Shown in pieces: positions 11,674 to 13,180 of a stretch of 64,000 nt of DNA. The notes below the pieces were generated by a model. That model was not told where the DNA came from and did no database searches. It saw nothing but the letters and a program-made list of their open reading frames with translations. Origin of the DNA: an uncultured delta proteobacterium (lineage in GTDB: Bacteria; Desulfobacterota; WTBG01; CAIYCZ01; CAIRTM01); assembly GCA_963804955.1 (NCBI GenBank), contig CAWDSQ010000030.1, positions 160,001-224,000 on the forward strand, read 5' to 3'. A program made the translations under genes and the position numbers. The number at the start of each line of letters is the position of its first letter. Position 1 is the first letter of the stretch.

Positions 11674-11704
11674 TATCTATTAAATCGCTAGAGCAACTAG
11701 ATTA
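11674..11704 (+). promoter_or_regulatory. Second copy of the operator motif, upstream of the metY leader
   Basis: TATCTATT-AAATC-GCTAGAGC followed by TAGATT; same TCTA-N9-TAGA spacing as the 5705 and 15100 sites. Confidence 0.55.
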
Positions 11705-11717
11705 AAGGTAATCAAAA

Positions 11718-11771
11718 ATGTATCGCAAGATTTTAAAAATGTACATGTGTAGTTTTGTTGATAGTGGATAA
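11718..11771 (+). CDS. Putative attenuator leader peptide [17 protein letters not shown] (17 aa)
   Basis: ATG at 11718 preceded by AAAGGT; clustered ATG-TAC-ATG-TGT codons; 3' end GATAGTGG is complementary to the 5' arm of the downstream terminator. Confidence 0.65.
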
Positions 11772-11803
11772 CCCGGTTATGCTCACAGGAGCTGAAGAAG
11801 TGC

Positions 11804-11848
11804 AGGCCACTATCCTATAATTGCATACGGATAGTGGCCTTTTTTTTT
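11804..11848 (+). terminator. Intrinsic terminator in the metY 5' leader
   Basis: 12-bp perfect stem AGGCCACTATCC (11804-11815) / GGATAGTGGCCT (11829-11840), followed by a T run to 11848. Confidence 0.88.
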
Positions 11849-11884
11849 ACCTACAGAATTCAAACAAAGAAAGCGAGGAACTCA

Positions 11885-13180
11885 ATGGCCTATAAAAATC
11901 TGGAAACTATTGCGCTGCATGGCGGGCAGACGCCCGACCCGACAACCGGTTCGCGCGCCGTGCCGATTTATCAGACAACCTCATATGTATTTAAGGATAC
12001 CGAGCATGCGGCAAATCTGTTTGCCCTGAAAGAATTCGGCAATATCTATACACGGCTTATGAACCCGACTACCGATGTGTTTGAGCAGCGCATCGCCCAG
12101 ATTGAAGGCGGCACTGGCGCTCTGGCGGTTGCAAGCGGCCAGGCAGCGGAAGCATTCGCGCTTCTTGCCATAACCCGGCCGGGAGATGAGATCGTGGCCG
12201 GCAATAATCTGTACGGCGGAACGTATCAGCTGCTGCACTACACCTTTCCCAAGCTCGGACGGACGGCAAAGTTTGTGGAATCGACAAAGCCGGAGGAATT
12301 CAAAAAAGCGATAACAGATAAGACGCGGGCGATTTATGTCGAGACCATCGGCAACCCGAAGCTTGATGTGCCTGATTTTGAAGCAATAGCCGCTATTGCC
12401 CATGAGGCGGGCTTGCCGCTTGTGGTTGATAATACGGTCGGGGTGGGGCTTGTGCGGCCTATTGATCACGGCGCTGATATTGTTGTGGCATCAGCTACGA
12501 AGTTTATCGGCGGGCATGGCACCTCCCTTGGCGGCGTTATTGTGGATTCGGGCAAATTTGACTGGAGCAATGGAAAATTCCCCGAGTTTACCGAGCCCGA
12601 CCCCAGCTACCACGGCCTTGTCTTCTGGGATGCTCTCGGCAATCATCCGGCGCTCGGGAATGTGGCCTTTATTTTGAAAGTGCGGGTGCAGCTGCTGCGC
12701 GATCTCGGGGCTGCGATCAGCCCGTTTAACTCCTTCCAGCTGCTGCAGGGCCTGGAAACGCTGCCCCTGCGGCAGCAGCGGCACTGCGAGAATGCTCTGG
12801 CTGTTGCGCGGTATCTGAAAAAGCACCCGCTGGTCGGGTGGGTGAATTATCCGGGGCTGGAAGACAGCCCCAATCACCGGGTGGCTTCAAAATATCTGAA
12901 AAAAGGCTATGGCGCCCTTGTGGGCTTCGGGATCAAGGGCGGACGTGAAGCAGGCAAAAAGTTTATCAACTCGGTTGAGCTGCTGTCGCATCTGGCAAAT
13001 ATCGGCGATGCGAAAACGCTGGTCATTCATCCGGCCTCGACGACCCATCAGCAGCTGACCCCGCAGGAGCAGCAGGCAACGGGCGTGACCGATGATTTCA
13101 TCCGCCTGTCGGTAGGGCTTGAGCATATCGACGATATCATTGCGGATATCGAACAGGCGCTGCAAAAGACCGCTGTTTGA
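11885..13180 (+). CDS. metY: O-acetylhomoserine sulfhydrylase (MetY/Met17 family)
   Basis: [32 protein letters not shown] and [30 protein letters not shown] before ATG 11885. Confidence 0.95.

Follow-up and report, generated by a model that had tools for sequence, protein, structure and literature searches.

A leader upstream of metY-metX-metW in an uncultured delta proteobacterium, predicted to act as an attenuator sensing mainly methionine

Textbook cases of leader-peptide attenuation concern Trp, His, Leu, Thr, Phe and Ile/Val, and there are reports of it for Cys as well. For methionine genes, the controls described are MetJ, MetR, SahR, S-adenosylmethionine (SAM) or S-adenosylhomocysteine (SAH) riboswitches, or T-boxes. 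Here we consider a short open reading frame (ORF) followed by a terminator, directly upstream of metY-metX-metW in a 64,000-nucleotide stretch of DNA from an uncultured delta proteobacterium of the phylum Desulfobacterota (GCA_963804955.1, contig CAWDSQ010000030.1, positions 160,001 to 224,000 of the forward strand). The whole stretch is called the window, its genome is G000, and the orthologous leader was found in G003, a genome of the same genus whose MetY is 98% identical. Sequence comparison and folding models make it highly probable that this leader is a ribosome-read transcription attenuator sensing mainly methionine supply for metY-metX-metW.

The closest described systems each share part of this arrangement, as far as the accessible parts of the cited papers go. 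In Rhodobacterales, uORFC-8-2 is a candidate Cys attenuator before cysS (PMC8632094); like the metY leader, it is a predicted ribosome-mediated attenuator with a terminator and senses a sulfur amino acid, but it has tandem Cys codons, a tRNA synthetase as its target, another lineage as its host and no Met core. In the mycobacterial polycysteine small ORFs (bioRxiv 10.1101/834739; predicted earlier in PMC1262725), a short ORF likewise releases downstream expression when ribosomes stall on its codons for a sulfur amino acid, but these read only Cys, are leaderless and act on translation initiation rather than on an intrinsic terminator. [quoted passage not shown] A survey of Met regulation in Proteobacteria (PMC4239095) covers repressors, the MetJ, MetR and SahR regulons, SAM/SAH riboswitches and an RNA element before metXZ. 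All of these resemble the metY leader in acting on met biosynthesis genes, and the metXZ element also in its proposed terminator and antiterminator, but the survey describes no leader peptide (in the main text the string "attenuat" occurs 0 times), whereas the metY leader has an ORF and no aptamer match. The accessible parts of PMC2965389, PMC5314783 and PMC4833913 contain no Met leader. An earlier, sequence-only reading of this DNA had called a Met-codon leader unusual for met genes, and no Met-codon attenuator was found in the literature searched; subscription papers lay mostly outside that search, and absence from print is not established by it.

Compared with the E. coli leaders used as benchmarks (thrL, trpL, hisL, leuL, pheL, ilvL and ivbL), the metY leader is alike in its short ORF with control codons for the pathway product, in an antiterminator that a stalled ribosome is predicted to leave free and a ribosome at the stop codon to cover, in an intrinsic terminator 20-60 nt further on, and in its behaviour in the folding model, where the terminator wins at equilibrium. 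It differs in using Met (plus Cys) control codons and in its target, metY, and in most metY leaders the terminator 5' arm is captured without a ribosome (20-22 of 24 modelled leaders vs 2-3 of 7 E. coli leaders). The parts of the element are as follows.

11704..11713, + strand: Shine-Dalgarno sequence of the leader ORF (duplex with the genome's own 16S tail; core kept in G003)
11718..11771, + strand: leader ORF of 17 codons (ATG at 11718, stop at 11769-11771)
11739..11750, + strand: control codons Met-Tyr-Met-Cys, corresponding to the family core M-x-M
11760..11767, + strand: antiterminator strand GATAGTGG, which pairs with 11807-11814; identical in G003
11777..11795, + strand: predicted small spacer hairpin within the antiterminator loop, also in G003 with a different sequence
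11804..11848, + strand: intrinsic terminator, 12-bp stem and T run

The last codons of the leader ORF carry an 8-nt copy of the terminator 3' arm, and CCACTATC at 11807-11814, inside the terminator 5' arm, is the complement of GATAGTGG at 11760-11767; the terminator stem is formed by 11804-11815/11829-11840 and is followed by nine T to 11848. The sequence-only reading had reported this uORF with its ribosome-binding site (RBS), the Met-Tyr-Met-Cys cluster, the 12-bp terminator with its T run and the match between ORF end and 3' arm, and its observation is confirmed in every coordinate. The duplex with the 16S tail has an energy of -7.0 kcal/mol at the leader RBS, compared with -8.4 at metY and -1.8 at the internal Met8. 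The fold of 11700-11860 is dominated by the terminator hairpin (z = -3.06; 0/200 shuffles as stable), which a consensus terminator scanner overlooked because its loop is longer than the scanner's 8-nt limit. The spacer hairpin at 11777-11795 might possibly serve as a pause hairpin.

The effect of ribosome position was modelled by folding transcript prefixes with the ribosome footprint held unpaired, a rough guide that handles hisL poorly (capture 0.50-0.75 at stop). In the window, the probability of the 8-bp antiterminator helix is 1.00 when the A site holds Met8 or Met10, 0.85-1.00 when it holds Cys11 and 0.26-0.85 when it holds Ser12, and it is 0 from Val14 to the stop; the control codons are therefore the last positions that leave the antiterminator free. 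When pairing of the 5' arm with any base upstream is counted as capture, the values, stalled vs stop, are 0.60 vs 0.21 in the window and 0.75 vs 0.26 in G003, and capture shifts by at least 0.3 between these states in 23 of the 24 hand-picked leaders, the window included. Once the 3' arm is present, the terminator wins at equilibrium in the window and in 4/4 E. coli benchmarks (0.95-1.00). Since the complete terminator is the most stable fold, the switch would be kinetic, and equilibrium folding was rejected as an argument against it, the benchmarks giving the same result.

In the mechanism proposed here, a ribosome would start on the leader behind RNA polymerase. With Met-tRNA scarce (or Cys-tRNA, at codon 11), it would wait at codons 8-11 with its leading edge at or just before 11760, and the freed antiterminator strand would capture the terminator 5' arm ahead of synthesis of the 3' arm, letting the polymerase enter metY. 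With plentiful Met, the ribosome would move to codon 14 or beyond, covering the strand at the stop, and the terminator would form. With no ribosome at all, the model defaults to the antiterminator, with a capture of 0.60 for the window and of at least 0.5 for the 20-22 metY leaders counted above, and failed initiation at low formylmethionyl-tRNA (fMet-tRNA) would also give read-through. Such a default-ON state would suit a Met sensor because Met shortage should also lower initiator tRNA charging. The protector (1:2) hairpin, which gives termination without leader translation and is typical of trp, his, leu and phe, seems usually absent from the modelled Met/Cys leaders. Its absence was rejected as a Met-specific trait, since an aromatic leader in G000 (described below) and E. 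coli ivbL behave alike.

Conservation was assessed against 14.8% divergence at metY four-fold sites as the neutral yardstick. Among 16 genomes of the family, only G003 matches the leader DNA in full, and G014 has a 34-nt match. On this one genome pair, the leader ORF keeps its frame and length with 2 of 54 nt differing (p about 0.009), and the antiterminator and both terminator arms are unchanged (0/32 nt; p about 0.006), while the spacer, the terminator loop and the post-terminator DNA have diverged by substitutions and indels. The G003 leader also has an extra Cys at codon 2. Short contigs over the leader in three public runs carry, among the variants listed, one Lys-to-Arg change at codon 4. 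No such leader lies directly upstream of metY in G004 or G012.

Chance expectation was taken from the 698 G000 terminators that precede an ORF. At least three Met/Cys among eight uORF codons are found at 43 of these, and Met/Cys content was rejected as stand-alone evidence, being at chance level. An 8-nt copy of the terminator 3' arm lies within the upstream 86 nt in 42/5000 shuffles and at 6/698 real terminators, three of these six having it within a uORF. The full architecture, a uORF arm copy with at least two Met/Cys codons 4-10 codons before it, occurs at one of the 698, the window's leader, by criteria chosen after the feature was seen.

A wider family of such leaders was found before metY. 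Loci were dropped if the flank was shorter than 150 nt or the alignment began past residue 15, which left 149 metY loci, 145 of them distinct; 24 terminators lie within 320 nt of the metY start, at 23 of the 145. Leaving out the window and G003, 22 terminators remain (relatives included); a leader in which 8 codons hold at least 3 Met/Cys precedes 18 of them, at least 4 precedes 17 and at least 5 precedes 14, vs 43, 7 and 1 of the 698 background terminators. Examples, by record title, come from Syntrophales (L104), Syntrophaceae (L063), Desulfomonilia (L046), Kiritimatiellae (L034), Lentimicrobiaceae (L082) and Flavobacterium (L085). The 27 archaeal metY loci with usable flanks include none of the terminator-bearing loci. 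At the Lentimicrobiaceae locus (L082:1707-1982), two leader-terminator units stand in tandem before metY, the first with Met as its sole control codon.

A family covariance model, R1, was trained on 21 leaders, those of the window and G003 being left out. Scanned over the 64-kb window, it returned this leader as its sole hit (24.2 bits), and the leader aligns with the family in its Met-to-antiterminator register and in the terminator core. Across the phylum, 6 of 151 genomes were hit, one strongly (a training sequence) and five weakly. R1 also revealed two new members, one in G004, of the same genus, and one in G033; each has a Met/Cys run and a strong antiterminator. Register and context weigh more than score in assigning the window leader, which on this alignment appears to be a divergent, minimal member whose early stop replaces the family's C-terminal tail. 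Family leaders also stand ahead of a small DUF2292 gene, at L114:2206-2320 (G004), L301 (G033) and L113:12195-12307 (G018); DUF2292 is confirmed by Pfam in G004 and G018, and it is followed by a rhodanese gene in G004 and by metY-cysK-metX in G018, where an Rrf2 gene lies upstream.

Aligning the metY upstream regions of relatives, a check suggested by the sequence-only reading, places Met codons at a fixed position and gives covarying stems, the antiterminator covarying more weakly. In the terminator, 85.7% of cells are paired and 8 of 11 pairs have changed on both sides; in the antiterminator, the covariation score is 0.171 vs 0.115 when shuffled (2/500) and 62.4% vs 58.4% of cells are paired in the best of 7 registers, and the tool itself warns that kinship inflates results of this kind. 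At one antiterminator pair that is G:C in 13 of the 21 leaders, the window and G003 carry A:U.

With regard to the amino acid sensed, the signal reads as mainly Met, with Cys a possible second input. All of the top 8 enriched amino-acid pairs in the leaders contain Met, which makes up 15.6% of leader residues; 14 of the 21 aligned leaders have a Met at precisely five codons ahead of the antiterminator column, and 13 have M-x-M. It appears rather doubtful that the attenuator reports general sulfur supply, with Cys as its signal or with Met and Cys on an equal footing. That reading draws on the 7.9% share of Cys among leader residues and on the Cys runs of many members, on the G004 and G033 leaders that precede DUF2292 genes (in G004 with the rhodanese gene next) rather than met genes, and on the model's result that a stall at Cys11 still frees the antiterminator, together with the additional Cys of G003. 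Met, however, is twice as frequent; four leaders (L101, L120, L123 and the first of the L082 pair) are entirely without Cys; and it is Met that holds the fixed position, the codon after it being Arg as often as Cys (Cys 6, Arg 7 and Pro 1 in the 14 leaders). Of the Met/Cys sensing originally proposed, the Met part is supported by this conserved codon, whereas Cys is not fixed. As for peptide sequence conserved beyond the control codons, a mark of nascent-peptide arrest sensors of the TnaC type, some family members share a Gly-rich tail, but it coincides with the G-rich antiterminator and is absent from the window leader.

Several points weigh against attenuation by the window's leader. Its own Met/Cys content is at chance level, with only two internal Met and one Cys. 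Its antiterminator duplex is not significantly stronger than composition-preserving shuffles (p = 0.11; G003 0.15), individual duplexes being so at p < 0.05 in 10/24 leaders. Third-position conservation of the ORF is not significant by itself (p = 0.38). In the folding models the window leader belongs with the weaker switches (0.45-0.60 in the stalled state vs 0.21-0.36 at stop), and in G003 the 8-bp register reaches only 0.00-0.09, a shifted ORF-end pairing with the same 5' arm winning instead. The R1 score is weak (E 0.0015 in 155 kb; G003 20.5 bits), and whole-genome R1 searches did not return the window leader. The family is patchy, with members at 2 of the 89 other metY loci examined in the window's phylum among 128 other matches, and a family-model search of 93 further metY loci gave no new member. 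Related leaders are not independent, so the family counts overstate independence, and the 24 modelled leaders were hand-picked for Met/Cys content, with three duplicate loci dropped. In the window assembly the promoter is incomplete, a truncated cysN replacing its -35 box.

Some of these points would also fit a decayed, weakly working attenuator copy that gives a fixed damping of expression and leaves regulation to the Rrf2 operator or an upstream cys promoter. The minimal control codons, the early stop that removes the family's C-terminal tail, the low family-model score, membership of the weakest switch class in folding and the -35 box lost in the window assembly all suit such a copy. We nevertheless consider it unlikely, given that between the window and G003 the ORF and the pairing arms have changed less than the neutral rate would predict, and that at the antiterminator pair where the window departs from the commonest state in the family, both bases differ and pairing is kept.

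For a functional attenuator sensing mainly methionine, the comparison with trp/his-type systems comes out as follows. An ORF with an RBS lies in the 5' leader of an amino-acid operon, with an intrinsic terminator before the first gene; control codons exceed chance at the family level (17/22 vs 7/698), the window's own count being at chance level; and a mutually exclusive antiterminator appears in the folding models, with modest covariation and a shifted register in G003. A protector (1:2) hairpin is lacking in the window and is not treated as defining, as ivbL lacks it too. By sequence and predicted folding, the metY leader thus shows every defining attenuator feature that was checked. The trp/his-type logic of the sequence-only reading is supported to the same extent: its stalling and read-through step agrees with the G003 conservation, the family and the ribosome-position folding, while the 8-bp register that it named is minor in G003.

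Could a small-molecule aptamer or an RNA-binding protein throw the switch, the ORF being incidental? In favour of this, SAM or SAH riboswitches commonly control met genes, and beta-proteobacteria have an unexplained terminator/antiterminator element ahead of metX/metZ (PMC4239095). An Rfam search of 10500-12500, proposed earlier as a way to exclude SAM and T-box elements, gave 0 matches to E 5; T-box (RF00230) has no match in the region or in G000, and no SAM-I was found in G000, a genome 87% complete. Riboswitch and T-box were rejected on these results. In addition, no conserved aptamer-like structure lies upstream of the antiterminator, in-frame Met codons at a fixed distance being conserved instead, and a switch thrown by an aptamer or protein is very improbable.

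The promoter region and the gene before it are as follows.

11293..11673, + strand: truncated cysN, 126 aa (NCBIfam CysN match, residues 12-125, 406-position model)
11669..11674, + strand: sigma70-type -10 box TATAAT, without a -35 partner in the window assembly

The window assembly amends the earlier reading in one respect: the promoter's -35 box is replaced by the truncated cysN, which joins the met promoter at about 11666-11669. Its identity to longer cysN copies stops at 11666 (G000 contig C19; G001-G004), cysN continues beyond the truncation point in G001, G002 and G004, and relatives' contigs from 3 of 4 public runs start aligning at 11668. G003 has a complete sigma70 promoter ahead of the leader, TTGACA-17-TAAAAT, aligned with the window -10 box, and therefore the terminator sits in a 5' leader. 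With the -35 box missing, transcription in the window assembly would have to enter the leader by read-through out of the cys genes, unless the join is an error of assembly; the cysN/-10 join may reflect either a real deletion or a chimeric contig.

This arrangement also bears on whether the terminator simply closes the cys transcript, with a chance ORF and with metY served by its own promoter. In the window assembly, cys genes do lie directly upstream on the same strand, and short ORFs with Met/Cys are common before terminators. The 36 nt between terminator and metY, however, hold no promoter consensus; in G003 the promoter stands upstream of the leader and the gene before it is unrelated and on the opposite strand; and the full architecture is unique among the 698 terminators. 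An ordinary terminator is hardly credible on this evidence, and the attenuator remains the preferred reading.

Several observations concern the assembly itself. The run cysK-aprA-aprB-sulfite reductase-cysD-cysN' at 5758-11673 unites loci that are separate in G003 and G004; in G003, cysK-apr-sir, cysD-cysN and the met leader are on three separate contigs, and the window's run has a second junction near 10190. Contig C29 duplicates about 26 kb of contig C30, on which the window lies, at 86-97% identity, and contig C19 holds a second, longer cysD-cysN that is 92% identical; given both, the G000 bin looks mixed. Many window genes are frameshifted, as in an error-prone long-read assembly. Short degenerate tandem repeats occupy the intergenic regions 11190-11250, before cysN, and 15600-15720, before a second cysK.

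A second layer of control may operate at the promoter, where two features are involved.

11675..11703, + strand: candidate Rrf2-family operator, ATCTA-N9-TAGA and then TAGATT, directly after the -10 box (motif recurrence)
15142..15579, + strand: frameshifted gene of an Rrf2-family regulator, which precedes the second cysK and has a promoter and candidate operator of its own (PF02082 above cut-off)

For the regulator, the only Rrf2 locus found in G000, TIGR00738 is also above cut-off, and the IscR and CymR equivalogs are below theirs. The same palindromic motif follows the -10 boxes of cysK (5706-5723), metY (11675-11692) and rrf2 (15110-15126) in the window, and those of cysK or metY promoters in G003, G004 and G012; by itself it is not rare, with 21 strand hits vs about 50 expected. 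The Rrf2 regulator likely acts as a repressor at this palindromic operator, and the motif shared by cysK, metY and rrf2 likely marks an Rrf2 regulon for sulfur genes. Control of metY is probably two-tiered, with the predicted Rrf2 operator, through which the adjacent repressor would set initiation, and the attenuator behind it. A further copy of the motif lies at about 183,742 on G000 contig C7, upstream of a gene that we take to encode an MvhD-type iron-sulfur subunit. In G012 (L004), about 300-390 nt upstream of metY, a promoter and operator are followed by a 9-codon ORF that starts like Rrf2 proteins, possibly an Rrf2 remnant; no Met/Cys leader is present there.

The genes downstream of the leader are as follows.

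11885..13180, + strand: metY, O-acetylhomoserine sulfhydrylase (TIGR01326, 676 bits, cut-off 495)
13270..14416, + strand: metX, homoserine O-acetyltransferase, in frameshifted pieces with approximate start (MetX models match two pieces)
14462..15022, + strand: metW (TIGR02081, 218 bits, cut-off 189.5)

The metX split is seen in G003 as well. Further on, the region 16969-18624 encodes a 406-aa protein that weakly matches methanogenesis marker 16 and, behind it, a small ferredoxin-like protein; the two might possibly form a second route to homocysteine.

The metY leader may not be the only leader peptide of this organism. On the minus strand of G000 contig C5, near 229,800-230,050, a promoter precedes a 23-codon leader with FFWFYFNF and a switchable terminator, followed by a gene that we assume encodes a DAHP synthase. 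From its sequence and modelled folding, this is likely an aromatic amino-acid attenuator, which suggests that the organism uses leader-peptide control elsewhere too.

Beyond this locus, we entertain, tentatively and at somewhat less than even confidence, the idea that these leaders form an undescribed, widespread class of Met attenuators that, lacking a protector hairpin, are ON by default and read Met shortage both at initiation, through fMet-tRNA, and at internal M-x-M codons. Such a class would travel between phyla coupled to an Rrf2 operator in a module of two tiers, replacing SAM riboswitches and T-boxes, and the window leader, with its two internal Met, would be a minimal form of it. The leader also raises the question of how a peptide that must start with Met can report Met shortage, and so short an element could serve as a compact methionine sensor. 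If confirmed, it would add one more amino acid to the attenuation list and would explain metY regulation in lineages without riboswitches.

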